From assembly GCA_027064425.1 (NCBI GenBank), contig JAMOPO010000005.1:1-20559 (forward strand): a stretch of DNA of 20,559 nt, in the 5' to 3' direction. Positions within the stretch are counted from its first letter, which is position 1. Each line of letters begins with the position of its first letter. The position numbers and the translations under genes were made by a program. Below the pieces are notes generated by a model, which made no database searches, was not told the DNA's origin, and saw only the letters and a list, made by a program, of their open reading frames with translations. Source of the stretch: Methanobacteriota archaeon. GTDB taxonomy: Archaea; JAADCQ01; Methanopyri; Methanopyrales; Methanopyraceae. This document shows, in pieces, positions 7,394 through 20,462 of this stretch.

Positions 7394-7754
7394 GAGCGCA
7401 CCCCCCGCCCCGCCCCGGACAGCCCGGAAAAATATGTTGATGGACCCACCGAGCCACGCCGTCGATCCCCCGCGGCTCGGACCGCGGACGCGCCGAACGG
7501 CGAGCGCGTCGGCCCGTCCCGCCCTAATTAGCGGGCCAGCCGGGACCGGCCCGCGCGACCGGACATCACAGCCCCGAGCGGCAGACGCGGCCAGGCGAGC
7601 GGGGCAGGGGCTGGGGGAGCTGATCCCGGATCGGGTGGGACCACAGTCGGGAACGGCACGCTGCGAGGTCTTCACGCACATCGCGCGGTGCCAGCTTCTA
7701 AGCCTCTGCCGGGTGTACGGCACCGCCCCCGCGAACCGCGCCAGCGATGATCGG

Positions 7755-8945: not shown

Positions 8946-8991
8946 TTTATAAGCGTTGCCATGCCCGGGCTCCCGATACCCCGATTTATAA
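8946..8991. promoter_or_regulatory. Two TTTATAA TATA boxes (8946-8952, 8985-8991) in the divergent intergenic region
   Basis: The only AT-rich boxes between divergent genes; the second lies about 55 nt upstream of the polyferredoxin ATG. Confidence 0.6.
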
Positions 8992-9044
8992 GGCGGCGGC
9001 CGTCCCGGGACCGGAGCACCGGGCCGCACTTGGGGGAAGCGCAA

Positions 9045-10118
9045 ATGGCGGACGGTCGGCTCAAGCCCGTGAAGGAGGTCTCCCCGCCCACCCTGAGGAT
9101 CGTGCGCGAGGGCGCGGAGACGCGGGAGCTCGTCGTGAACATGGAGCGGTGCGCCGCCTGCGGGCTCTGTCAGACCGCCTGTCCGGTGAACGCGATCACC
9201 GTGGAGCCGCCCTCCGCCGTCGTGCGGAGGGGCGAGGACCCGATCGACATCGACGAGGAGGAGTGCGTCCTCTGCGGCATCTGCGCCTTCGTCTGCCCGT
9301 ACGACGCGATCACGCTGCTCATCGACGGTGAGCCCGCCACCGAGCGCGGCTTCCCGAAGCTGCCCAAGGACGTGGAGGTGGACGAGGAGGAGTGCGTGTA
9401 CTGCGGGCTCTGCGCGGACACGTGCCCGCAGGAGGCGATCACCGTCGAGCGGGAGGTGCCCAGCCCCGGCGACCTGGCCATGGGTGAGATCGAGATCGAT
9501 GAGGAGAAGTGCATCTACTGCAAGGCGTGCGAGGAGGCGTGCCCGGCCGACGCGATCACGGTCGAGCGGCCCACGCCCAGCGCCAGCGACCCGGAGCCCG
9601 AGTTCAGCATCGAGGTGGACGAGGACAGGTGCGTGTACTGCGGCGTGTGCATGCGGACGTGCCCGGTGGACGCGATCAAGGTCGGCTGCATGATCTGCTA
9701 CGGCACGACGCGCGGTGAGCTGCCCGAGAAGGGCGAGATCGAGGGCGAGATCGCCGTCAACAGGTCCCGGTGCGTGTACTGCTCCTGGTGTGAGCAGGTC
9801 TGTCCGGTCGAGGCCATCGAGGTCACCAAGCCCTACCAGGGCAGCATCGAGATCGACGACGAGGAGTGCGTCGGGTGCGGGCTCTGCGTCGAGGTCTGCC
9901 CGTGCAACGCGCTCGAGTTCGAGAAGGGAGGGACGGCCGGGAAGACGCGGATCGTCGTCAACACGGACGCGTGCGCCTACTGCGGCGCCTGCGCCCGGGC
10001 GTGCCCGGTGGACGCGATCGAGGTCGTGCGCGAGGACGTGACCGCGATGCCGGAGCTGCCCACCAAGGCCTGGGAGCGCGCCCTGGACCGCGTGCTGTGG
10101 CCCACGGAGAAGGAGTAG
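9045..10118 (+). CDS. fwdF: Polyferredoxin with eight [4Fe-4S] motifs, FwdF-like (formylmethanofuran dehydrogenase subunit F type), 357 aa
   Basis: Eight CxxCxxCxxxCP motifs plus an extra CMIC. Start reassigned to ATG 9045 after a GGGGGA SD. Size and layout fit FwdF. Confidence 0.8.
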   Translation: MADGRLKPVKEVSPPTLRIVREGAETRELVVNMERCAACGLCQTACPVNAITVEPPSAVVRRGEDPIDIDEEECVLCGICAFVCPYDAITLLIDGEPATERGFPKLPKDVEVDEEECVYCGLCADTCPQEAITVEREVPSPGDLAMGEIEIDEEKCIYCKACEEACPADAITVERPTPSASDPEPEFSIEVDEDRCVYCGVCMRTCPVDAIKVGCMICYGTTRGELPEKGEIEGEIAVNRSRCVYCSWCEQVCPVEAIEVTKPYQGSIEIDDEECVGCGLCVEVCPCNALEFEKGGTAGKTRIVVNTDACAYCGACARACPVDAIEVVREDVTAMPELPTKAWERALDRVLWPTEKE

Positions 10119-10139: not shown

Positions 10140-10162
10140 ATCGTTACGAACTTTGAAACCAT
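10140..10162. repeat. 23-bp palindromic motif, copy 1
   Basis: ATCGTTACG-aactt-TGAAACCAT; symmetry extends into the flanks (cca...tgg). Confidence 0.7.
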
Positions 10163-10336
10163 TGGCTGGGGAGAAAGGGTCGGGCATTACCGGGCGATCC
10201 TCCCGAGCGCGAAGGTTCCGGAGGTTGTGGTGGGCCGAGGGACTCCTCGCTGCGCGCTCCGGACTGCTGCGGTCCTTACGGAAACCGAGCGCGGATGGCC
10301 TGTGAGGTTTAAGCTGAGGCGTCCGGTGGCGTGGAC

Positions 10337-10505
10337 GGGGCGCTCCCGTCGGGCCGGGGAGTAAGCCGCGGGCGCCTCGGGCCCGTCCCGATGTGGGTCG
10401 GCGGGAACCCCGAACCGAGGGGACCGCCGGCCCGAAGGGCCCCCTGACGCGGGGGCTCGGGCCCGGGGCGGCCGCGGCCGAAACCCGGTCCGACGGGAGC
10501 GCCCC
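10337..10505 (+). promoter_or_regulatory. Highly structured fdhA 5' leader enclosing the SECIS
   Basis: 10337-10358 pairs with 10484-10505 (22 bp, one G-U). 10365-10385 pairs with 10458-10478 (21 positions, one G-U, one G-G). TTTAAG box at 10308-10313. Confidence 0.8.
10395..10433 (+). promoter_or_regulatory. Archaeal SECIS element in the 5' UTR of fdhA
   Basis: GGGTCGGCGG-GAA-CCCC-gaaccga-GGGG-A-CCGCCGGCCC: a 10-bp stem, GAA/A internal loop and GC apical stem, matching the archaeal SECIS consensus. Confidence 0.9.
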
Positions 10506-10536
10506 CGCCGCGCGGGTCGAAGGGGGTGAGAATGCC

Positions 10537-12588
10537 TTGGCGAGGCTGCGGTTCGTGCCGCAGGTGTGCCCGTTCTGCGGGTGCGGATGCGGGGTCCTGG
10601 TTGGAACGGACGGGGAGCGGATCCGGGTGCTGGAGCCCTGGCGGCGGCACCCGGTCAACGAGGGGCGCCAGTGCATCAAGCTCTGGGAGGCTCCGGAGGC
10701 GTTCCGACGGGACCGGCTGGAGCGGCCGGCGCGGGTGACCGAGTCGGGTGAGCTGCGCGAGCTCTCGTGGAACCGGGCGCTTGAGGAGGTGGCGGAGGCC
10801 CTCGGGTCCTTCGAGCCGGAGGAGGTGTACTTCGTCACCTCGGCCAAGGCCACGAACGAGGACAACTACGTCGGGCAGAAGCTGGCCCGCGCGCTCGGGA
10901 CGAACAACGTGGACCACTGCGCGCGGCTGTGACACGCTCCGACCGTGGTCGCGCTGTCCGAGGTCTTCGGGTCGGGGGCGATGACCAACTCGATCCCGGA
11001 CCTCGCCGAGGCGGACTGTTACCTGGTCGCGGGCTCGAACACGGCGGAGCAGCACCCGATCGTGTACCGCAGGATCGTGGAGGGGGTAGAGGACGGCGCC
11101 GACCTGATCGTGCTGGACCCGCGGCGCACGCTGGTGGCGGAGCTGGCGGATCTGCACCTGCGGGTGCGGCCGCGGTCCGACCTGGTCGTGTTCCTGTACA
11201 TGGCCCGGGTGATCCTGGAGGAGGGGCTGCACGACGAGGAGTTCATCGAGGAGCGGACCACCGGGTTCGAGGCGTTCGCGGAGTACGTCCGCGGGGCGGT
11301 CTCGGAGGAGGACGTTCGGAGGATCGCCGGGGTGGACCCGGAGGACGTCCGGGAGGCGGCCGTGCGGTACGCGGAGGCGGACCGGGGCTGCATCATCTAC
11401 TGCATGGGGCTCACGCAGCACGACATCGCCTGCCGGACGCTGCGGGCCCTCTGCGCGCTCGCCCTGCTGACGGGTAACGTGGGCCGGCCCGGCACCGGCG
11501 TCAACCCGCTCCGCGGGCAGAACAACGTGCAGGGAGCCTGCGACGTGGGCGCGCTGGCCACGCACTTCCCCGGGTACCGGCGGGTCGGTCCGGAGGCGGC
11601 GGAGGAGCTGGCCCGGCTCTGGGGGTTCGAGGTGCCCGAGGAGCCCGGGCTGCGGCTCCCGGAGGCGTTCGACTCGGACGAGATCGCGGCGATGTACATC
11701 TTCGGCGAGAACCCGGCGGTCTCGGAGCCGAACTCGCGCCACGCGGTCAGGAAGCTCCGGAACCTGGAGTTCCTCGTCGTGCAGGACCTGTACCTGACGG
11801 AGACGGCGGAGCTGGCGGACCTGGTCCTGCCCGCCGCCGGCTGGGCGGAGCGCACGGGCACCTTCACGGCGACCGACCGGCGCGTCCAGCTCTCGGAGAA
11901 GGTCGTGGACCCGCCGGGCGAGGCCCGGCCCGACTGGTGGATCCTGGAGGCGGTGGCCCGGCGGCTGGGGCTCAAGGGGTTCGGCCACCGGTCGCCGCGC
12001 GAGGTCTTCGAGGAGATCCGGCGCGTCGTCCCGCAGTATCGAGGGATCACGTACGACCGGCTCCGGAGGCGGCCCGGCGGGATCCACTGGCCGTGCCCGG
12101 AGGAGGACCATCCGGGCACGCCGATCCTGCACACCGAGGAGTTCGCCACCGAGGACGGCAGGGCCCGGTTCCCGAGGCCGGAGGACGTGGAGTACCGGGA
12201 GCCGGAGCGGGGCGTGGATGAGGAGTACCCGCTGATCCTCACCACCGGTCGGGTGTACGCGCACTACCACACGAGGACGATCACGGGGCGTTCCCGGCTC
12301 CTGGACAACGAGGTGCCGGAGTCGTTCGTCGAGATCCACCCGAAGGACGCGGAGCGCTACGGAGTGTCGGACGGTGAGGAGGTGATCATCGAGACGCCGT
12401 ACGGCAGGTGGCGGTGCCGCGCGCGGGTCACCGATCGGGTGCGAGAGGGCGTGATCTTCACCCCGTTCCACTTCGGCGAGAACGCCCTGACGCCGCCGGA
12501 CATCATCGATCCGGAGGCGGGGATCCCGGAGTACAAGCACGTCCCCGCCCGCATCAAACCCTCCTCCCGGGGCGGGTCCGGCTCCTAG
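10537..12588 (+). CDS. fdhA: Formate dehydrogenase alpha subunit, selenocysteine-containing (UGA at 10930-10932), 683 aa
   Basis: ORFs 10393..10932 and 10945..12588 are in the same frame and read VDHCARL-TGA-HAPTV, the active-site Sec/His motif. N-terminal CPFCGCGC, PLRGQNNVQGACD, LTTGR..HYHT. TTG start after GGGGGTGA SD. Confidence 0.95.
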
Positions 12589-12591
12589 GGG

Positions 12592-13746
12592 GTGAAACCC
12601 ACCGTGTCGGGGATCGAGGTGAACGGGTGCTACCTGGCCCGGTCGTCGGACCCCGACACCGTGGAGGAGGCCGCGTGCGGCGGGGTCGTGACGGAGCTGC
12701 TGCGGTACGCGCTGCGGGAGGATCTGGTGGACGTGGCCGTCTGCGTGGAGCGGGGTATCGACGCGCTGGACGGGCGGCCCGTCGTCGTGGACGACCCGGC
12801 CGAGGTGCCCTCCGGCTCCTACCACTGCGCCCCGACCCAGCTGGCCCGGCTCGTGGCGGAGCTTCACCGGGAGGACCCCGAGCTGCGGGTCGCGGTCACC
12901 TGCAGGCCCTGCGACGCTCGAGCCCTGGAGCGGCTGGCCGAGCGCGACCTCGTGAGCCTGGATCGGGTGTACCGGATCGGCCTCAACTGCGGCGGCACCT
13001 TCGAGCCGAGGGTCGTGCTGGAGATCCTGGAGGAGCACGACGTGGACCCGCTGGACGTGGAGCGGGAGGAGGTGGCCAAGGGCAACCTGATCATCGAGCT
13101 TCGAGACGGCGAGGAGATCAAGGTCTCGATCGACGATCTGGAGGAGAGGGGGTCCGGACGGCGCGAGAGCTGCCGCCGGTGCGACGAGAACGTCCCGGAG
13201 CGCGCGGACCTGGCGTGCGGTAACTGGGGCGTCCCGGACGAGATGATGGGGAAGTGGACGTTCGTGGAGGTCAAGACCGAGGACGGGCGCGACCTGCTGG
13301 CCGGCGCCGTGGAGGAGGGAGCGGTGGAGGTGCTGGAGGCGCCCGAGAGGTCGGTGCGGATCCGGGAGAAGATCGACGAGATCATGCGGAAGATGGCCCG
13401 CTCCTGGCGGGAGAAGACGCTGGACGAGGATCACCTGGCGGAGGCGCTGGAGGCGCTGAACCGCTGCATCAAGTGCCGGAGCTGCCGGCAGGTGTGCCCG
13501 GTCTGCGAGGCGTGCGAGGAGGAGGGGTGCTGGGCCTTCGCCGGCCGGGAGTCGGTGACGCCCACCCCCGCCTGGCACGCGCACGTCGCCCAGTGCGTCG
13601 CCCTGTACTGCGTCGAGTGCGGGGCCTGCGAGACCGCGTGCCCCGCGGAGATCCCGCTGACCAGGATCTACAGCGTCCTGCGTGAGCGGCTCCCGGACCT
13701 GCTGGACCGCATCATGGAGGGGCGGCGAGCCTCCGCCGGGGAGTGA
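12592..13746 (+). CDS. fdhB: F420-dependent formate dehydrogenase beta subunit (FrhB/FdhB family)
   Basis: CGGVVTELL, SGSYHCAP, VTCRPCD, IGLNCGGT, RRESCRRC, ADLACGNWG and two C-terminal ferredoxin motifs; starts 3 nt after fdhA. Confidence 0.93.
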   Translation: MKPTVSGIEVNGCYLARSSDPDTVEEAACGGVVTELLRYALREDLVDVAVCVERGIDALDGRPVVVDDPAEVPSGSYHCAPTQLARLVAELHREDPELRVAVTCRPCDARALERLAERDLVSLDRVYRIGLNCGGTFEPRVVLEILEEHDVDPLDVEREEVAKGNLIIELRDGEEIKVSIDDLEERGSGRRESCRRCDENVPERADLACGNWGVPDEMMGKWTFVEVKTEDGRDLLAGAVEEGAVEVLEAPERSVRIREKIDEIMRKMARSWREKTLDEDHLAEALEALNRCIKCRSCRQVCPVCEACEEEGCWAFAGRESVTPTPAWHAHVAQCVALYCVECGACETACPAEIPLTRIYSVLRERLPDLLDRIMEGRRASAGE

Positions 13747-13807
13747 GCGCCGGCGCCGCCCGACCCTCCTTACCTTCCCGCCTTACCCCCCGCGCGTCGT
13801 CGGGGCA

Positions 13808-13830
13808 ATCGTTATGACCTGCGTAACGGT
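13808..13830. repeat. 23-bp palindromic motif, copy 2
   Basis: ATCGTTATG-acctg-CGTAACGGT. Confidence 0.75.
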
Positions 13831-13837
13831 AGGGGAC

Positions 13838-13897
13838 GTGGATGATGACAGCGGTGGGCACGGAGCGGGTGAAGAGCCCCAGCCCCATGCTGACCGC
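13838..13897 (+). ncRNA. C/D-box methylation guide sRNA
   Basis: C box ATGATGA 13842-13848, 12-nt guide, D' CGGA 13861-13864, C' GTGAAGA 13869-13875, 14-nt guide, D box CTGA 13890-13893, terminal stem GTGG/CCGC; intergenic. Confidence 0.85.
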
Positions 13898-14619
13898 TAC
13901 CGCTCGCCCGGGCGCACCCCGGTGCGCTCCTCCACCACCCGCTCGACCAGCTCCTCCCGCCTGAGCCGGGAGTAGAGGCCCTGCCAGCCGCCGTCCTCAC
14001 CCTCCCACCACTCTTCGAACCCGTCCAGCCGCTCCGACAGCCACGCGCAGAGGCACAGGCCCAGCAGCCGCGCCGACCGCTCGTCCCACGCCCGGCGGAA
14101 CCCCTCCGACAGCCGCTCAGCCGCCTCCCCGAGCTCGTCCAGCAGCACGTCGGCCGCGTCCTCCAGCACCGCCAGCGCGACCAGGCCCCGGACCGGGTGC
14201 ACGTCCAGCCGCCGGTACACCTCCCTCAGCGCGGCCGCCGGCCCCTCCCCGTCGACGCCCCAGCACGCCAGCGTCGCCTCCGGCGAGAGCACCGGCAGGC
14301 CGTACAGACCCCGGCCCTCCACCAGCGCGCGCAGCCGTTCCACGAGCGACGACTCGACCCCGCTCAGCCCCAGGACCCCGCGGAGCACCTCCCAGGGCGA
14401 GCCGTCAGCCTCCATCTGCAGCGCCGAGCGGCGGAAGATCGAGGCCACCCGCGCGACCGCCTTCGCCACCGGCCAGACCTCGTCCACCCGCCGGATCAGC
14501 GTCCGCTCCTCGGCCCGGCGGTCGTCCAGCACGTCCCGGGCCGCGTCGATCACCGCCTCGGCCCACTCCTCGTCCACGCCGAAAACCGACACGGCTCCCT
14601 CGACCTCCAGCTCGATCAC
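13897..14619 (-). CDS. Hypothetical helical protein (240 aa) translationally coupled to the ParA-family ATPase
   Basis: Start reassigned to GTG 14619, a GTGA overlap with the upstream stop. Host-like Glu/Arg/Leu/Ala-rich composition. No recognised family. Confidence 0.75.
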   Translation of the reverse strand: MIELEVEGAVSVFGVDEEWAEAVIDAARDVLDDRRAEERTLIRRVDEVWPVAKAVARVASIFRRSALQMEADGSPWEVLRGVLGLSGVESSLVERLRALVEGRGLYGLPVLSPEATLACWGVDGEGPAAALREVYRRLDVHPVRGLVALAVLEDAADVLLDELGEAAERLSEGFRRAWDERSARLLGLCLCAWLSERLDGFEEWWEGEDGGWQGLYSRLRREELVERVVEERTGVRPGER

Positions 14620-15518
14620 CCCTCGAGAACCCCCGTGACGTGGTCGCGCCGCTGCCAGTACTGCGCGATCAGGAAGGCCACCTCCCGGAACAGCCGCTCG
14701 TACTCCCGAGGCCGCGACCGCCGCATGCGGAGCGGGATGCCGAGGTCCGTCGCCGACTTGATGACCTGAGCGTCCGGGATGTGCACCCGGTCCACGGCAC
14801 CGACCACCTTGCTCAGCTCGCGCCGGACCCGCTCCAGGTTCGCCTCCCACTCCACCGTGCCGGGCTTGTAGTCCTTGTTCAGCACGAGCACGCGAACGTC
14901 GGGCCCGTGCTCCGACTCCAGGAACCGGGTGATCTGCTCGGGCGAGGACGGGTCCATCACGGGCACGATCGTGTCGCACGCCCGCAGCACCCGCTTGACC
15001 CACCGCTGCTCGGAGTTCATCGGCGGGGTGTCCACGAAGGCGATCGGGGGCCGCGCGCCCCCATCCTCCCCGCGCACCAGGTCGTGCACCCCGGCCACCA
15101 GCCGTCGAACGCGCTTCCGGCTCGCCACCCGCCTGTAGTCGCCGCTGGCGGGCACCGCGAGGAACGCCGCGCCCAGGCCCGCGGCCCGATCGTCGAGCAG
15201 CTCCTCCAGACCGTCCGGCTCGAACTCGAGGCGGTACACCTCGAAGCCCTCGATCTCGCCGACCCGCTCCGGCCTGAAGGGACCGCGACCGGCGAGCAGC
15301 TGCTTCAGGGTGAGCCCGCTCGACTCGCGGTTGCCCTGCGGGTCAAAGTCTATGAAGATCGTCGGGCACGCCGGAACGCCGCCGTAGCCCCGGGGCCGCG
15401 CGAACTCCATCCCGACGTTGAACGCCACGGTGGTCTTGCCCGTGCCACCCTTGTAGGCCGCCACGCCCACGACCAGCGGGGCGCGCGGCTCCAACCCTCC
15501 CGCCCCCGCCTCCGGCAT
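14616..15518 (-). CDS. ParA/MinD/Soj-family ATPase
   Basis: Deviant Walker A KGGTGKTT, IDFDPQGN, FVDTPP, LVLNK. Start probably ATG 15518 or TTG 15494; the longer track start would run through the palindromic site. Confidence 0.88.
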   Translation of the reverse strand: MPEAGAGGLEPRAPLVVGVAAYKGGTGKTTVAFNVGMEFARPRGYGGVPACPTIFIDFDPQGNRESSGLTLKQLLAGRGPFRPERVGEIEGFEVYRLEFEPDGLEELLDDRAAGLGAAFLAVPASGDYRRVASRKRVRRLVAGVHDLVRGEDGGARPPIAFVDTPPMNSEQRWVKRVLRACDTIVPVMDPSSPEQITRFLESEHGPDVRVLVLNKDYKPGTVEWEANLERVRRELSKVVGAVDRVHIPDAQVIKSATDLGIPLRMRRSRPREYERLFREVAFLIAQYWQRRDHVTGVLEG

Positions 15519-15594
15519 TGGGAGAACTGGGCGGCCCGTTATCGTTACAGCAAGCACGATCCCGGGAACCCGTCGAGGCGGCGTTGACGCGGCC

Positions 15595-15617
15595 ATTGTT
15601 TCGATCATCGAAACAAT
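15595..15617. repeat. 23-bp palindromic motif, copy 3 (perfect arms)
   Basis: ATTGTTTCG-atcat-CGAAACAAT. Confidence 0.8.
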
Positions 15618-15679
15618 TGGGGCGACGCCGCGCCCGCCCACGGTCCGCGCGAGTCGATCGCGCGCCGATCCCGGGCAGG

Positions 15680-15702
15680 ATTGTTACGGAGTCCGTAACG
15701 GT
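15680..15702. repeat. 23-bp palindromic motif, copy 4
   Basis: ATTGTTACG-gagtc-CGTAACGGT, 6 nt beyond the tRNA CCA end. Confidence 0.8.
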
Positions 15703-15708
15703 CCGCGC

Positions 15709-15822
15709 TGGTGGGCCCGCCGGGATTTGAACCCGGGACCACCGGCTCACCGCGGCGGGGCGGGGCTCAATCCCCGCCCCGCCTCGTCAGGCCGGCGTTC
15801 TACCGGGCTGAACTGCGGGCCC
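15709..15822 (-). tRNA. tRNA-Val(GAC) with a 37-nt intron at 37/38 (15748-15784), genomic C8 and encoded CCA
   Basis: GGGCCCG-C-AGTTCAGCCCGGTAGAACG-CCGGC-CT-GAC-G-[intron]-A-GCCGG-TGGTC-CCGGGTTCAAATCCCGG-CGGGCCC-A-CCA; all stems pair; mature length 77 nt. Confidence 0.92.
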
Positions 15823-15873
15823 GCCCCCGTGCGGGGCCCGACCCGAGGGAGACCTAAAAACGTTACGGTCCCG

Positions 15874-17286
15874 CTAGGCGCCGGTGAGCCTACGGAGCGC
15901 CTTCCGAACACGTTGCGACTTCCTCTTAGAATACGCGAAGCCAACTGACTGAAGGAACCGCTCCACTTGGCACCTGTCGTGAATTCGTAATGACAGCTTG
16001 ATCCTGGCCCCACCACGCTCAGTATCATACGGGTCACGCCAGTACCTACACACCTTATCCTCGCTCACTCCCAGCTCTGAGAGTAACCCAACGACATCGT
16101 CCATGAACCCCTCTAGCGATTTCGACAGTTTCAGAGATTTGGCTAAGGTGAGCCCGACCGTGTACCTGCCACCCGATTCCGCGAGCCACCCGTCGGCGCC
16201 GAAGAGGCCGGCGAGGAACTCGGCCTTGATGCCGGTGGGTGCGCGGCGGATCCAGCCGGGGACCCGGTAGGCGCGCTCGACCTTGGGGCTGCGGGGCATC
16301 CCGAGGTGCTCGAGGTAGCGGGCGAAGGACTGGGCGTGGACGTGGACCTCGACCATGTCCTTGGTGTCCCAGCGTCGGAGGCCCGTCCTGACGCCGAGGT
16401 CGTGGAGGTCGTGGGCGAGGTCTCGGAGGCCCTCGGGCTCGCCGGCGAAGGTGAGCCGGGGGCGTCCATTGACCTCGTGGAGGCTGCCGTCGCCGAGGGC
16501 GTAGCCGAGGATGCGGGCGAGGAGCGGCGCCTTGTGGTCGTCGAGGTCGAGTGGGAGGAGGCCTCGGCGGCGGAGGTACGCCTCCTGTTGGTCGGGCAGG
16601 TCGGGGTCGTGCAGGACGGGGTCGGGTGGGGCCTGAACGGGTCGGGTGCGGGCTCGGAGGCGTTCGATGCGGCGCTCGAGTCGGGTCTTGAGCCGGTGGG
16701 CCTCGCGGCGCTTGCCCTCGTGGTACGGGAAGCCGACGCGGGTGAGGAGTCGGTGGACGTGGGTGTCGCCGTCGATGTGGAGGTGGGCGCGGAGGTGTTC
16801 GCGGCCGGAGGGTCGGGTGGGGGTGGCGTGTACGCGGAGGTCGTGGAGGAGTGTGCGGACGTCTCGGAGGAAGGCGGTGAGTCGGTCGCGGTGGCGGGCC
16901 GGGGTGGTCATGGTGAGGGTGACGCGCGGGGTGGTGGGGTCGTCGTCGGTGATGGTGGCGCGGGCGTCGTGGAGGCCGGCGAGGTAGGCGGCCTTGAGGG
17001 AGGGTGGAGCGTGGTGGACGGCGTCGGGAACCTTGGGGCCGGTCTCGCGTCGGGGGCCGGTCGGGGCGCCGAGTCGGAGGAGCTCGCGGGCGGGTCGGTG
17101 GAGGGTGAGCTCGGTGGTGCTCGGTGGGTGGAGGTCGAGGCGGTGAAGGTCCTGCTGGAGTCTCGGGAGGGCCTGTGGGTCGACGGTGAGTCGGGCGCGG
17201 TGGGTCCGGTCGCGGGGGCACTGGGTGATGGAGCCTCGGGCGGTGAGGTAGCCGAGGAGCCGGTACAGTGCCGGGCGTTGGCTCAG
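15874..17286 (-). CDS. Free-standing tandem LAGLIDADG (intein DOD-type) endonuclease-like protein, about 470 aa; start uncertain
   Basis: The frame stays open upstream of track ATG 16911 up to a TAA at 17320-17322. N-terminal unit: LLGYLTARGS / YLAGLHDARA / VGFPYHEGK. C-terminal unit: ILGYALGDGS / FLAGLFGADG / VGFAYSKRK. No HINT splicing motifs seen. CTG 17286 is the proposed start. Confidence 0.78.
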   Translation of the reverse strand: MSQRPALYRLLGYLTARGSITQCPRDRTHRARLTVDPQALPRLQQDLHRLDLHPPSTTELTLHRPARELLRLGAPTGPRRETGPKVPDAVHHAPPSLKAAYLAGLHDARATITDDDPTTPRVTLTMTTPARHRDRLTAFLRDVRTLLHDLRVHATPTRPSGREHLRAHLHIDGDTHVHRLLTRVGFPYHEGKRREAHRLKTRLERRIERLRARTRPVQAPPDPVLHDPDLPDQQEAYLRRRGLLPLDLDDHKAPLLARILGYALGDGSLHEVNGRPRLTFAGEPEGLRDLAHDLHDLGVRTGLRRWDTKDMVEVHVHAQSFARYLEHLGMPRSPKVERAYRVPGWIRRAPTGIKAEFLAGLFGADGWLAESGGRYTVGLTLAKSLKLSKSLEGFMDDVVGLLSELGVSEDKVCRYWRDPYDTERGGARIKLSLRIHDRCQVERFLQSVGFAYSKRKSQRVRKALRRLTGA

Positions 17287-17446
17287 GGTTGTTCCCCGGG
17301 ACCCGGTGCCGGCCGCGGGTTAAGGTGGCGCGGTGTTCGCTTGCTGTGCGGGGCCCTCTCGAGGGGGGTGGGGGAGCCACCGTTAAGGTAACTCCTATAA
17401 ATCGCCGGGGCGTCTTCGGGGCCCGCCGGGCGCGGGGGTCCTCCGC

Positions 17447-17680
17447 TTGCTGAAGACCCTGATGAGGGCGCTCAAGGAGGACCGGGAGGCGGCGGAGCGG
17501 GCCCTCAGTCGAGTTGAGCGGATCAAGCGTCAGGTGTCCGGGGAGCGGGTGGAGGTGGAGGAGGTCGCCGAAAAGGTGGGCGTGGAGCGCGATCTTCCGT
17601 ACGATCGGTGCGAGGACGTTGCCCGGGAGCTGCCGAGGCTGAGGAATCTCCGGCACCGGTCGCTGGCCGGGGAGCGTTAG
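17447..17680 (+). CDS. Small hypothetical helical protein (77 aa)
   Basis: Host-like codon use and charge pattern; TATAAAT box at 17396-17402; GGGGGT SD-like sequence upstream. Confidence 0.55.
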   Translation: MLKTLMRALKEDREAAERALSRVERIKRQVSGERVEVEEVAEKVGVERDLPYDRCEDVARELPRLRNLRHRSLAGER

Positions 17681-17745
17681 CGCGCGGGTGGGTCGCCGTT
17701 TCCCGGCGTCACGCGCCGTATCGTCCGCCGCGCTCGCCGCTCGTG

Positions 17746-18978
17746 CTAGGATCCGGGGCCTACGGGGCTGAGCTCGCGGACGTCGTCGCGCCCGGGCAGT
17801 TTGCGGTGGAGCAGCCAGGATTTGATGCGGATGATGCCGGCCAGTGGTAGGACTCGGGCCAGGGCGGGGTCGGGGTGGGGTAGGGTCTCTCGGAGCTCGC
17901 AGAGCTCCTCCTGGGTGAGGGTGGTGAGGGGCTCGGCGGTGGCGACGGGGACGACGTGCTCGATCTCGTGGTGGACGAGGTGCCTCCAGGAGCGGCCGGC
18001 CTTGACCTCGTCGGGACGGAGGTCGGCGGTGAGGGCGCGGGCGACGGGCTCGGGGAAGTAGTCGGTGGGCTGCTCCTCGACCTCGTCGTAGGTGAGCCCG
18101 TAGCCGCGGGCGTCCATGACGGTGTCGAAGGTCTCGGGGTAGAGGGGGACGAGCCGGCGCAGGTCGGTGTAGGCGGTCTCGTGCTCCTCGTGGACCCAGG
18201 GCAGGTACCCGCGGCGGGCGAGCGGGCCGGGCAGGGCGGCGGCGTTGGCGCGGAGGACGCGGTGCTCCCAGCGGAGGACGGGTGGCAGGTCGTGCGGGTG
18301 GATGAGCCGGGCGAAGTTGTCGAGGACCTCCTCCTCGACCCCGTAGCGCTCGGCGAGCCACTCGAGGAGGGGCTGGTAGGGCTCGTCGGCGAGCACGTCG
18401 GAGTACTCGGCGAGGGTTCGGAGCAGCTCGGGGTAAGCGTCCGGGTCGCCACGCTCCCAGCGCCTTAGGAGCTCCCGGGTGCGGGGGCACTCGAGGTCGC
18501 GGGCGAGCTCGCGGGCGCGGTTGAGGAGAACGTCGGGGCGGTCGTGAAGGTAGGCGGGCTCGTCGCCGGGAAGCTCGGCCTCGGGGGTCAGCCGGTGGGG
18601 TCGGAGGACGCGGGCGACGTGCTCGCGCCACTCGGGGTCGTGGAGGATCGCGGCGAGGGCGGCCTCGGTGCTGCCCAGCCGGAACTCCCGGGCGAGGCGC
18701 ACGAGGAGGGCGACGCCGGCGAGCTGGGTGGGCGTGGTGTCGGCGCGGACGGTGGTGCTGGCTCGAGGGGACCAGCCGTCGCCCTCCACCAGCTCGCTCG
18801 CGTTCACGGTCTCCCCGGCGCGGAGGCGGGAGAGGAGCTCGTGGAGCGTGTCGCGGACCCAGTCATGCAGGACGTCGTTGGCCGTGGTGAGGGCGCCGAT
18901 GACGTCGAGGAGGGCGCGGCCGAGCTCGACGTCGCTCACCGGGAGCCGGACGGTAACCCCAACCCGCCTCACCCCCAC
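17746..18978 (-). CDS. Hypothetical protein (410 aa)
   Basis: Long ORF with consistent C-ending codons and protein-like composition; no family recognised. Confidence 0.7.
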   Translation of the reverse strand: MGVRRVGVTVRLPVSDVELGRALLDVIGALTTANDVLHDWVRDTLHELLSRLRAGETVNASELVEGDGWSPRASTTVRADTTPTQLAGVALLVRLAREFRLGSTEAALAAILHDPEWREHVARVLRPHRLTPEAELPGDEPAYLHDRPDVLLNRARELARDLECPRTRELLRRWERGDPDAYPELLRTLAEYSDVLADEPYQPLLEWLAERYGVEEEVLDNFARLIHPHDLPPVLRWEHRVLRANAAALPGPLARRGYLPWVHEEHETAYTDLRRLVPLYPETFDTVMDARGYGLTYDEVEEQPTDYFPEPVARALTADLRPDEVKAGRSWRHLVHHEIEHVVPVATAEPLTTLTQEELCELRETLPHPDPALARVLPLAGIIRIKSWLLHRKLPGRDDVRELSPVGPGS

Positions 18979-19098
18979 CGAAAGGCGTTGACGGCGGGGT
19001 TTCCCTCAAGATAGAAAACCGTTTCGGAGAGGGATTCTCCACGCCGATAATCTTATCTAACCGCAACTTAACTTCGGGGCCGTGCCGGGGGGACCCGC

Positions 19099-19488
19099 TT
19101 GGCCGGCCCGCAGCAGATCGTCGAGGAGGACGGCGTGCTCTGCGCGTTCATCGCCACGAAGGATGGGTTCACGATCGACGCGGCGGTCTCGGAGGAGGTG
19201 AAGGAGGAGGTGGGCGAGGTGGATCCGGAGCACCCGGCCGCCGTCTCGTCGACGATCCTGCTGCGCGTAAAGAACCTCATGGAGCAGCTGGTGAGCCCGC
19301 GTGAGGAGGTCACGATCTCGGTCGTCGGCGGCCACTCGCTCGTGCTGAAGGAGGTGCAGGGGTACTTCATCGTGGGGCTCCTGTACGACAGCGAGCGGAT
19401 CACCGAGGGCCTGGCCAGGATGCTGCTTCAGCAGCTGGAGGAGGCCGCCCAGCGGTTTTACGAGGAGTCCGGGGTTCGGGGCGAGTAG
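19099..19488 (+). CDS. Roadblock/LC7 (MglB-like) domain protein
   Basis: DGVLCAFIATKDGFTI...PAAVSSTIL...GLARMLL pattern, 129 aa; GGGGGG SD before TTG. Confidence 0.8.
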   Translation: MAGPQQIVEEDGVLCAFIATKDGFTIDAAVSEEVKEEVGEVDPEHPAAVSSTILLRVKNLMEQLVSPREEVTISVVGGHSLVLKEVQGYFIVGLLYDSERITEGLARMLLQQLEEAAQRFYEESGVRGE

Positions 19489-19494
19489 CGCCGT

Positions 19495-19881
19495 ATGGAC
19501 GACTTCAACACCGCGATGCTGGCGGCCTTCCTGGCGACGCTCCGGGAGCTCGAGACGCCCGCCAACGTCGTCCGGGCGCTCGCCGACGTCCTCCCGGAGC
19601 GCCTCGAGAGCCGGGAGGCCGAGCGGGTCCTGGAGGTGCTCGAGGGGCTGCCCGAGCGGAGGGGGAGCGTGGAGGGCGCCTGCGGGGAGACCTACCGGGT
19701 GAGCGACGGCTAGATCGCCGTCGAGGACTGCCCCTGGAGACCCGTCTGCGACCTGGTCGAGTCGGCGGTGGGGAACGTCCTCTGCCCCGTCGCCCTGCTG
19801 ATCGCGGTCCTCAACGAGGTCTGGTTCGAGCGCGTGGAGCGGGGTGAGGACGGTTGTCGGCTGATCCTGCCGCGCGGGTGA
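19495..19881 (+). pseudogene. V4R/methanogen-output-domain-like protein interrupted by an in-frame TAG (19711-19713)
   Basis: After the TAG the frame continues IAVEDCPWRPVCDLVESAVGNVLCPVALLIAVLNEVWFERVERGEDGCRLILPRG to TGA 19879-19881, which overlaps the next GTG start. Confidence 0.7.
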
Positions 19882-20300
19882 TCTCGCCCACGCACACGGT
19901 CGCGGTGGCGCTCGTGCTCAACCGGATCATCGAGCGGAACGACGGGCGGGTCACCTACGCCCACCTGAGGATCGTGGTCGACCACCTCCAGGACCTGCTC
20001 GAGGCCGATCTCGAGCCGCTGGTCCGGGCGCTGCGGGAGGGCGGGACCGTGAGGCTGGGCCTGGACGGGGGCGAGCTCGCGCTCGAGGTGGAGGACGACC
20101 GGGTGACGGTTCGGGAGTGCCCGTACCGGGGGGAGTGCCGCCGGCTCTCGGGGGTCGCCGACGGACCGCTCGTCCTGCCGTGCACGGTCCTGGTCCAGCT
20201 GGCCCTGGACGAGCTCGGAGAGGGTCGGCACGTCGTCGGGCTCGAGCGCGGGGACGCGGAGTGCTCGCTGAGGCTCGTCGAGGGGCCCGCCAATCGTTAA
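19878..20300 (+). CDS. V4R/methanogen-output-domain-like protein (140 aa)
   Basis: VTVRECPYRGEC...LPC...AECSLRL Cys pattern; GTG 19878 in a GTGA overlap. Confidence 0.68.
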   Translation: MISPTHTVAVALVLNRIIERNDGRVTYAHLRIVVDHLQDLLEADLEPLVRALREGGTVRLGLDGGELALEVEDDRVTVRECPYRGECRRLSGVADGPLVLPCTVLVQLALDELGEGRHVVGLERGDAECSLRLVEGPANR

Positions 20301-20335
20301 AGTGAGGGGATCGGGCCCACCGACAGCGGCGGCCG

Positions 20336-20413
20336 GCCGGGGTCGTCCCGGCGGGTCGTGAGAGCGGGGCGGACCCCCGCCCGATGACGGCCCGTCGTTT
20401 CCGCCCCGGTACA
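20336..20413 (+). ncRNA. H/ACA-type pseudouridylation guide sRNA
   Basis: Lower stem GCCGGGG/CCCCGGT then ACA (20411-20413). Bipartite 7+7-nt pocket TCGTCCC / GTTTCCG. 10-bp upper stem 20350-20359/20387-20396. K-turn-like GAGA / CCGATGA below an apical GCGGGG/CCCCGC hairpin. 14 nt from the top of the pocket to ACA. Confidence 0.75.
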
Positions 20414-20439
20414 AGCCCCCGGAGGGCTCCCTCCGGCGT

Positions 20440-20462
20440 ATCGTTACGAGATCCAAAACGAT
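20440..20462. repeat. 23-bp palindromic motif, copy 5
   Basis: ATCGTTACG-agatc-CAAAACGAT, directly abutting the thrB SD. Confidence 0.72.

Follow-up and report, generated by a model that had tools for sequence, protein, structure and literature searches.

A 23-bp palindrome that occurs five times in a 20,559-nt stretch of DNA from a Methanobacteriota archaeon (contig JAMOPO010000005.1 of assembly GCA_027064425.1, numbered C5 here; the whole stretch is referred to below as the window) is probably a signal of the 3′ boundaries of transcription units, involved in termination, attenuation or 3′-end formation. Judged by its sequence pattern and placement, it may well be a genus-specific terminator or attenuator that works in both directions and is read as duplex DNA by a symmetric factor. 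A bolder extension, put forward here only tentatively, is that oligo-T termination has for the most part given way in this genus to a DNA terminator that is sequence-specific and bound by a protein, that acts behind every tRNA, the rRNAs and highly expressed genes, and that inside operons is a tunable attenuator; this would be the first Reb1/TTF-I/mTERF-style system in Archaea. The study genome (G000) comprises 1.54 Mb on 57 contigs, has a G+C content of 67.8% and is 99.17% complete. It was compared with five relatives (G001 to G005), which together with it make up six genomes of the window's genus, presumably Methanopyrus, a genus of thermophilic methanogens.

Within the window, exactly five matches to the pattern AYYGTTWCG-N5-CGWAACRRT were found, starting at 10140, 13808, 15595, 15680 and 20440 and carrying 0–2 mismatches, against an expectation of 0.11 from dinucleotide-preserving shuffles, none of 100 of which reached five. 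The five full copies, their 5-nt spacer and the unchanged A1, G4, T5 and T6 in all ten half-sites were confirmed as given in a preliminary description of this DNA. Across the whole genome, the same pattern has 10, 55, 85 and 105 matches at no more than 0, 1, 2 and 3 mismatches, respectively. Alignment of the genome-wide sites gave a refined consensus, ATCGTTACGA-NNN-TCGTAACGAT (i.e. ATCGTTAYGA-NNN-TCRTAACGAT), usually with GA in front, which detects 110 sites at up to 5 mismatches in its 20 specified bases, whereas three shuffled genomes gave 1, 2 and 1. When only DNA outside coding sequences (CDS) was considered, 54 sites (≤3 mismatches) and 82 sites (≤5 mismatches) were recovered, compared with means of 0.0 and 0.48 and a maximum of 3 in 50 dinucleotide shuffles. 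The 5-nt spacing is exact in 49 of 52 inverted pairs of 9-mer half-sites genome-wide. The motif is present in all six genomes of the genus, with 13–58 sites each at up to 2 mismatches and 0 for a reversed-pattern control, and was found in none of the 15 searched genomes of other archaeal families. The excess over shuffled DNA, the constancy of the spacer and the conservation among relatives, all of which the preliminary description had proposed to check, were thus borne out beyond the window.

The palindrome is A+T-rich (arms about 60% A+T) within this G+C-rich genome, and its dyad symmetry reaches inwards to position 11 (a purine in 77 of 95 sites) and position 13 (a pyrimidine in 70 of 95). 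The consensus holds no T run, its longest T stretch being TT, and no U tract follows the would-be stem, with T at position 24 in 38 of 95 sites and positions 25–30 rich in G and C. The copies differ in centre and flanks, and doublets with 17–260 bp between copies are frequent (e.g. C3:131778/131795, C26:313/576 and the window pair 15595/15680). A repeat of the CRISPR type, as a substrate of Cas6, was considered and rejected, the palindrome copies being solitary or in irregular doublets and not in regular repeat-spacer arrays; a 22-mer scan of this assembly, in which arrays could have remained unassembled, found no CRISPR arrays.

The position of the sites relative to genes carries the case for a 3′-boundary signal. 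Seventy-six of the 110 sites lie no more than 70 nt downstream of a called 3′ end, which belongs to a tRNA in 37 cases, to a CDS in 38 and to 5S rRNA in one. ARAGORN, with introns allowed, gave 42 credible tRNA predictions and the Rfam model, used separately, gave 34. A palindrome stands behind 38 of the former, the other four lacking a CCA end and looking spurious, and behind all 34 Rfam-detected tRNAs, every one of which is among those 38. The gap between CCA and palindrome is 5–11 nt and amounts to exactly 6 nt in 24 of 37 cases. At rRNA genes, palindromes are located 12 nt past 5S, 84 and 276 nt past 16S, and 134 and 397 nt past 23S. At protein genes, the 38 sites lie 12–61 nt past the stop codon, 33 of them within 12–35 nt, and the genes in front of palindromes include mcrB, mcrA, atpA, nrdD, thrC, pdxS and purM as well as those for ribosomal proteins S10, S15 and L7Ae and for EF-1beta. 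Eight sites fall inside open reading frame (ORF) calls, most of them with 4–5 mismatches and one being a gene-call artefact, and the remaining 26 of the 110 are accounted for by short contigs, stretches lacking annotation and the second members of doublets. The tRNA-His and tRNA-Ser(TGA) loci, both with palindromes, are near-identical on two contigs each (C16, C18, C29/C32) and are probably assembly duplicates or a repeated region.

Sorted by the type of intergenic spacer, a site is present in 22 of 90 convergent, 43 of 372 tandem and 2 of 164 divergent spacers, a distribution rich in convergent and poor in divergent spacers that is the signature of a 3′-end element and the opposite of that expected of a promoter or operator. 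The preliminary description had offered three readings of the palindrome, namely a centromere-like or chromosome-organising site, a site for a global regulator, and a roadblock or boundary element. The scarcity of sites in divergent, i.e. promoter-side, spacers disfavours the second, and a parS-like role is contradicted by the spread of the 110 sites over 21 of the 57 contigs (3.9–13.1 per 100 kb on each of the 7 contigs longer than 40 kb), with no clustering near parA; the positional statistics at 3′ ends fit the third. The arrangement of tRNA-Ala, palindrome, promoter and tRNA-Ile in that order, with a B recognition element/TATA box (BRE/TATA; score 13.9 on the matrix described below) between palindrome and tRNA-Ile, indicates that the palindrome parts two units, each with its own promoter. 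The two sides of the element are not equivalent. The flanking base is A on 56 of 83 sides facing an incoming 3′ end, compared with 39 of 97 other sides, and arms facing a tRNA carry 0.71 mismatches on average versus about 1.4. At tRNA sites, the arm facing the 3′ end is also better kept than its partner (28 versus 62 mismatches, of 380 positions each). This bias suggests that the direction of transcription matters and that the element is not fully symmetric in use. The first 10 nt past a stop codon are, in addition, G-poor and 59% C when a palindrome follows, compared with 34% C otherwise.

Oligo-T runs, the other candidate stop signal, were surveyed in the same genome. A T5 run occurs within 60 nt of the stop codon in 29 of 1127 flanks, compared with 6.6 expected when each flank is shuffled, and oligo-T after genes is thus rare yet real in G000, with T4 behind 2 of the 42 tRNA predictions. 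A palindrome stands behind 43 of the 1127 stop codons, and only one of these 43 flanks also holds a T5 within 60 nt. At the orthologous 3′ flank of fdhB, a T5–T6 run is present in G002, G003 and G005 and a palindrome in G000; from this comparison of sequences, palindrome and oligo-T run would share one functional slot that is interchangeable between species at fdhB. Other positions are constant: the arrangement mcrB–palindrome–mcrD is orthologous in all six genomes of the genus. The modal gap between CCA and palindrome is 6 nt in G000 and 8 nt in G004, the extra bases being A's right behind CCA, and this shift is genome-wide rather than gene by gene.

For G002, assembled contigs from four RNA runs (X1–X4, one study) were compared with 20 kb of the genome. 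Poly-A loose ends of these contigs put mature tRNA 3′ ends at CCA (6079, 7610–7612 and 1494). At a convergent ORF, the longest contig ends at 7652, 11 nt short of the palindrome at 7619–7641, although such contigs cannot show RNA ends; among the RNA contigs listed, none covers 7611–7651, in a list that leaves out 47 of 71 rows of loose ends as well as 140 pieces of contigs.

The pairing between the two arms was counted on 70 sites that could be oriented by their upstream gene, giving 700 pair cells. In the transcript sense, these comprise 545 Watson–Crick pairs, 32 G·U, 41 A·C and 82 other combinations, and the paired variable positions 8/16, 7/17 and 10/14 change independently (Fisher p = 0.12, 0.33 and 1.0, respectively), without an excess of compensatory changes. 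Among 14 tRNA-linked sites of G004, G003 and G001, 10 show a sense-strand C·A mismatch and one a U·G, and by hand count 30 of 41 G004 sites combine one C-type with one T-type arm, leaving a non-Watson–Crick pair at 8/16. All 70 sites, and the perfect consensus as well, are predicted to be unfolded as RNA at 98 °C (dG 0), where a 10-bp G+C stem would reach −4.4 kcal/mol; these energies are extrapolated from standard parameters and are rough for temperature and cell salt. The stem is not extended outwards, as flanks beyond positions 0/24 pair near chance (19–35 of 70), and the symmetry at positions 11/13 could not come from pairing because they lie inside the would-be 3-nt loop. The independent arms, the lack of a G·U preference, the reach of the symmetry, the A+T richness and the predicted unfolding together speak for a symmetric factor that reads duplex DNA, and a protein bound to the duplex would also be in keeping, indirectly, with the strict dyad symmetry and the fixed spacer. 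The preference of the preliminary description for a dimeric protein on double-stranded DNA over an RNA hairpin thus appears to survive, with a free RNA hairpin as the less probable alternative. A signal at the RNA level could nevertheless take the form of a transcribed hairpin, perhaps clamped by a protein, that serves as the target of a nuclease in pre-tRNA 3′ maturation, as an intercistronic processing site or as a 3′ cap against exonucleases. We hold this to be unlikely, yet deserving of serious consideration. It would suit the tight spacing to CCA, both the 6 nt of G000 and the 8 nt of G004, the C-rich and G-poor stretch upstream, and the fact that the palindrome never lies closer than 12 nt to a stop codon, about a ribosome's reach. 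Copies inside operons, directly before Shine–Dalgarno (SD)-like runs and start codons, must be part of those mRNAs, one G002 copy is spanned by a contig from the RNA runs, and the copy at 15595 retains perfect pairing through two symmetric double changes; 3′ maturation is also what was speculated in the available parts of an earlier paper (PMC5217627). Besides the mismatches and predicted energies given above, such a signal would have to accommodate the conservation of the sequence itself, not merely of its pairing, across genomes of 61–71% G+C, an A+T-rich stem where G+C stems are possible, and the unequal conservation of the two arms at tRNA sites, which pure pairing does not predict.

The remaining explanations do without an RNA structure. 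The palindrome could be promoter-like, with TFB/TBP on arm and flank giving weak outward promoters or with a non-productive complex as the block itself, which we regard as improbable. In G000, tRNA genes have classical BRE/TATA boxes as promoters, some 45 nt ahead of the mature 5′ end, and a matrix was built from 36 of these promoters. The sequence of an arm and the flank outside it (sGAATCGTTA) agrees with the junction between BRE and TATA in these promoters, and many real promoters likewise have AAnCGTT as their core. In the register starting 4 nt before the palindrome, the mean score is 1.1, near the genome's 99.9th percentile of 1.55, and tRNA-linked palindromes average 3.1. The left arm and flank of the copy at 13808 score 9.1, and tRNA promoter geometry applied to this arm predicts a start near 13836–13838, where the match to a C/D-box-like small RNA (sRNA) begins; several start codons, moreover, lie 12–20 nt behind a copy. 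The training promoters, however, average about 13 (467.8 in total over 36), far above the palindromes, in which the TATA part is interrupted by YG, and, at a genomic G+C content of 68%, high scores are reached by any A+T-rich word. At least ten tRNA-linked copies face the stop codon of a convergent gene 14–37 nt away, which makes no sense for a promoter, and G000 and G003 differ in the distance from palindrome to the same C/D-box-like sRNA (7 nt and about 45 nt, respectively). A start 6–7 nt past the palindrome would also cut off the SD-like G runs of the following genes, and the contrast between divergent and convergent spacers is the reverse of that expected. The idea that the distal arms are better promoters aimed back at the tRNA was rejected on their scores (2.13 versus 3.09). 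A site acting at the level of the chromosome, i.e. one bound or cleaved by a topoisomerase, an SMC/condensin loader or a nucleoid protein behind highly transcribed genes, seems about as doubtful. Its appeal lies in the roughly 110 dispersed, extragenic copies, which follow genes for tRNA and rRNA and others with high expression (mcrA, mcrB, atpA, S10, S15, L7Ae and EF-1beta), in the restriction of the motif to one genus, a restriction that also holds for topoisomerase V, and in the window copy before a ParA-like gene. Yet the exact CCA spacing and the orientation-dependent flank point to transcription itself, the element is exchangeable with an oligo-T run at fdhB, many copies stand behind ordinary biosynthetic genes (thrC, purM, pdxS), and near parA there is no clustering, the protein after parA being acidic and helical and without a Pfam family. 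Least credible is a selfish repeat, similar to repetitive extragenic palindromic (REP) sequences or to a miniature inverted-repeat transposable element, that merely tolerates 3′ intergenic places. Many similar, dispersed copies, frequent doublets and variable presence between species at some loci would be in keeping with it. REP sequences and the bacterial interspersed mosaic elements (BIME) that they form are short imperfect palindromes, about a hundred in number, at convergent or intercistronic 3′ ends, often doubled, that bind gyrase and IHF, and as hairpins in bacterial operons they protect the upstream RNA from exonucleases. The present palindromes share with REP/BIME the large number of imperfect, extragenic copies at 3′ ends; unlike them, they are A+T-rich in a G+C-rich genome and occur once per tRNA at a fixed distance, behind all 34 Rfam-detected tRNAs. 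No Y1 transposase of the RAYT/IS200 type was found (0 matches to PF01797 in G000, the control being positive in 6 of 14 reference genomes), the mcrB–mcrD copy is orthologous in all six genomes, and the differing centres and flanks argue against a recent burst.

On the preferred reading, that of a two-way terminator or attenuator in duplex DNA, the palindrome would end transcription units from either direction and would act as a leaky attenuator inside operons such as mcrB/mcrDC. A symmetric, presumably dimeric, factor on the duplex would halt or dislodge RNA polymerase, and the nascent RNA might then pass to aCPSF1/FttA, the general factor for cleavage and termination, an orthologue of which is encoded in G000 (909 bits). 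The C-rich, G-poor stretch between stop codon and palindrome may keep the nascent RNA accessible, and, from the tight spacing to CCA, the stop would seem to be positioned such that the tRNA trailer stays very short. Within the mcr cluster of G000, mcrG and mcrA are each equipped with a separate BRE/TATA-like box, and a leaky stop behind mcrB would therefore reduce no genes but the accessory mcrD and mcrC. The boxes in this cluster (C26:18400–24300) stand before mcrB, mcrG and mcrA, with another right after mcrA, and the cluster may be transcribed as several units rather than as one mcrBDCGA operon.

Several points weigh against this reading. The whole case is one of position and sequence statistics, for which the gene calls came from our own crude codon-usage caller and the script assigning spacer types left 38 of the 110 sites unplaced. 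A classical roadblock stalls polymerase about 10–15 nt before the bound protein, so that with a gap of 6 nt the block must act at the centre or far arm of the palindrome if CCA is to be transcribed. The cores of the two half-sites are separated by 14 bp, a distance unusual for a simple helix-turn-helix dimer. The 12-nt minimum from stop codons and the C-rich spacer fit an RNA-level signal as well, and the very high salt that has been reported inside cells of this genus lies outside the extrapolation of the folding energies. In about 10 of 39 tandem sites, the next start codon comes 8–27 nt behind the palindrome, with G-rich SD-like runs and no canonical promoter between them (e.g. thrB and mcrD), which implies that termination there is leaky or attenuating, or that the element does something else. 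In G002, one RNA contig (769–1523) bridges a palindrome at 1465–1487; although such contigs cannot show RNA ends or strands, this suggests that at least some transcripts, or contaminating DNA, cross the element. In G004, finally, a palindrome is located 84 nt before thrB in a divergent spacer.

What is understood of transcription termination in Archaea concerns almost exclusively U-rich tracts and the nuclease aCPSF1/FttA. In its place behind genes, and in a genome that encodes the factor, the palindrome resembles the archaeal combination of oligo-T and aCPSF1/FttA as described in the available parts of three papers (PMC8716108, PMC7515710, PMC13675443); unlike oligo-T terminators, it lacks a T run, and its form is that of a strict palindrome whose spacer is fixed and whose sequence is conserved. 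In the available parts of a 2026 review (PMC13675443), the only archaeal routes are U/T-rich and cleavage-linked, and no such palindrome appears. The same parts describe bacterial bidirectional intrinsic terminators, which resemble the present element in being a palindrome common to convergent genes and at least 12 nt past stop codons (PMC13675443), whereas here flanking U/A tracts are absent, the stem is not G+C-rich and is predicted to be unfolded, and covariation is lacking. An intrinsic terminator of bacterial type was rejected on the absence of a stable G+C stem, a U tract and compensatory or wobble changes. Reb1, Nsi1 and TTF-I act at terminators of RNA polymerase I, and mTERF1 acts at the boundary of the mitochondrial rRNA and tRNA-Leu genes. 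The palindrome is similar to the sites of these proteins in being a specific duplex, usable from both sides, behind rRNA and tRNA genes, the likeness here being one of position and sequence only. It differs in that the spacing to CCA is tighter than a classical roadblock footprint, and no homology is implied.

The preliminary description did not recognise the palindrome as a described site, which holds for its wider role but not for the motif itself. A motif-discovery paper of 2017 (PMC5217627), as far as its available parts go, reported CGTTA(N)9TAACG about 10 bp downstream of approximately half of the tRNA genes of Methanopyrus kandleri AV19, called it specific to that organism and speculated about a signal for 3′ maturation. 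This motif corresponds to positions 3–7 and 17–21 of the present consensus, at the same place after tRNA genes. Whereas those parts of the paper concern about half of the tRNAs of one strain (PMC5217627), the palindrome is found here behind 34 of 34 Rfam-detected tRNAs, at rRNAs, behind 38 stop codons, in convergent spacers and in six genomes. No other description of the motif was found in the literature searched, in which the available passages of PMC3695527 are silent and which covered neither the supplements of that paper nor those of PMC5217627. In the literature found, the general two-way role at the 3′ boundaries of tRNA, rRNA and protein genes, the exchange with oligo-T and the use in the mcr cluster are unreported. 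If the palindrome is a terminator, it would represent a new kind of stop signal for the archaeal RNA polymerase, which is Pol II-like, maybe one mediated by a protein, and would account for the way in which this lineage forms tRNA 3′ ends that carry an encoded CCA. Each genome offers about 100 natural sites, natural variants among them, that lend themselves to direct tests. The element could also serve as a compact two-way insulator for the genetics of hyperthermophiles and, in the annotation of Methanopyrus genomes, as a mark of transcription-unit ends and of unannotated RNA genes.

The five window copies, none of which is assigned a strand, illustrate these settings. The neighbours named in the preliminary description (fwdF, a C/D sRNA, the CCA of a tRNA, parA and thrB) were all recovered, and two contexts were amended, as the second copy also follows an FdhB-like stop codon and the fifth an H/ACA-like sRNA. 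Copy 1 (10140–10162) lies 21 nt past the stop codon (10116–10118) of a polyferredoxin (fwdF-like) gene at 8961–10118, with the start of fdhA 230 nt beyond it. It is retained at the orthologous position in both G003 and G004 and was not found at up to 6 mismatches in G001, G002 and G005, the contig of the last stopping 108 nt past the stop codon. Copy 2 (13808–13830) is located 61 nt past the FdhB-like stop codon (13744–13746) and 7 nt before the C/D-box-like sRNA (13838–13895, plus strand), which has visible C and D boxes and a weak match to Rfam sR41 (22.1 bits, E 0.066, under the gathering score). In G003, this sRNA sits about 45 nt past the fwdF palindrome. A general association of palindromes with C/D-box sRNAs was rejected, a strict scan giving 10 candidates and a looser scan beside palindromes finding them at only 4 of 110 sites.

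Copy 4 (15680–15702) lies 6 nt past the CCA of tRNA-Val(GAC) (15709–15822, minus strand), which has a 37-nt intron and an encoded CCA and was missed by ARAGORN at default settings but found with introns allowed or by Rfam (RF00005, 46.8 bits). Copy 3 (15595–15617), 62 nt beyond copy 4, is the second copy behind this tRNA and lies 76 nt before the ATG of the ParA-like gene (15518–15516, minus strand). It departs from the consensus symmetrically at positions 3/21 and 7/17 and so remains a perfect inverted repeat; the paired T7/A17 change is rare, occurring in 2 of 70 oriented sites. At the stop codon of the ParA-like gene begins an ORF (13897–14618, minus strand) for an acidic, helical protein of about 240 aa without a Pfam match, which may be a partner of the ParA-like protein. 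As a candidate binder of the palindrome it was set aside for its acidity and lack of a family match. Directly upstream of tRNA-Val, a protein of 345 aa with a LAGLIDADG_3 domain (E 1e-13) is encoded at 15874–16911 on the minus strand and has paralogues near other tRNA genes in G000 and G002. It was likewise rejected as the binder, as this query retrieved relatives from no more than 4 of the genus's 6 genomes and PDB holds no clear relative.

Of the five lone half-sites proposed in the preliminary description, only that at 15541 is not promoter-like (score 0.7). The one at 15859 is the BRE/TATA promoter of tRNA-Val (15851–15868, minus strand; score 11.6), that at 19018 coincides with a promoter-like BRE/TATA box at 19010–19027 (minus strand; 10.8), that at 17379 lies beside another at 17386–17403 (plus strand; 7.5), and that at 20293 falls in a promoter-like box (20288–20305; 5.2) in front of the H/ACA-like sRNA. 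The latter (20335–20413, plus strand) ends in ACA, has no Rfam family match at E up to 1, and shows 95% identity over 79 nt to a counterpart in G002 at a different, non-syntenic locus. Copy 5 (20440–20462) follows about 30 nt past this ACA box and 12 nt before the GTG of thrB (20475); in G002, neither the thrB locus nor that of the sRNA holds a palindrome when up to 6 mismatches are allowed.

The fdhA–fdhB block separates the fwdF palindrome from the C/D-box-like sRNA in G000 (window 10163–13807) and is not found there in G003, and each of the two 3′ ends has its own palindrome; it seems that a palindrome was the place at which the fdh genes were inserted or rearranged. In this block, the gene for formate dehydrogenase alpha (10393–12588) is interrupted by an in-frame TGA at 10930–10932, in the context C-A-R-L-TGA-H, which likely encodes selenocysteine, and ARAGORN predicts a tRNA-Sec at C27:117682–117773.

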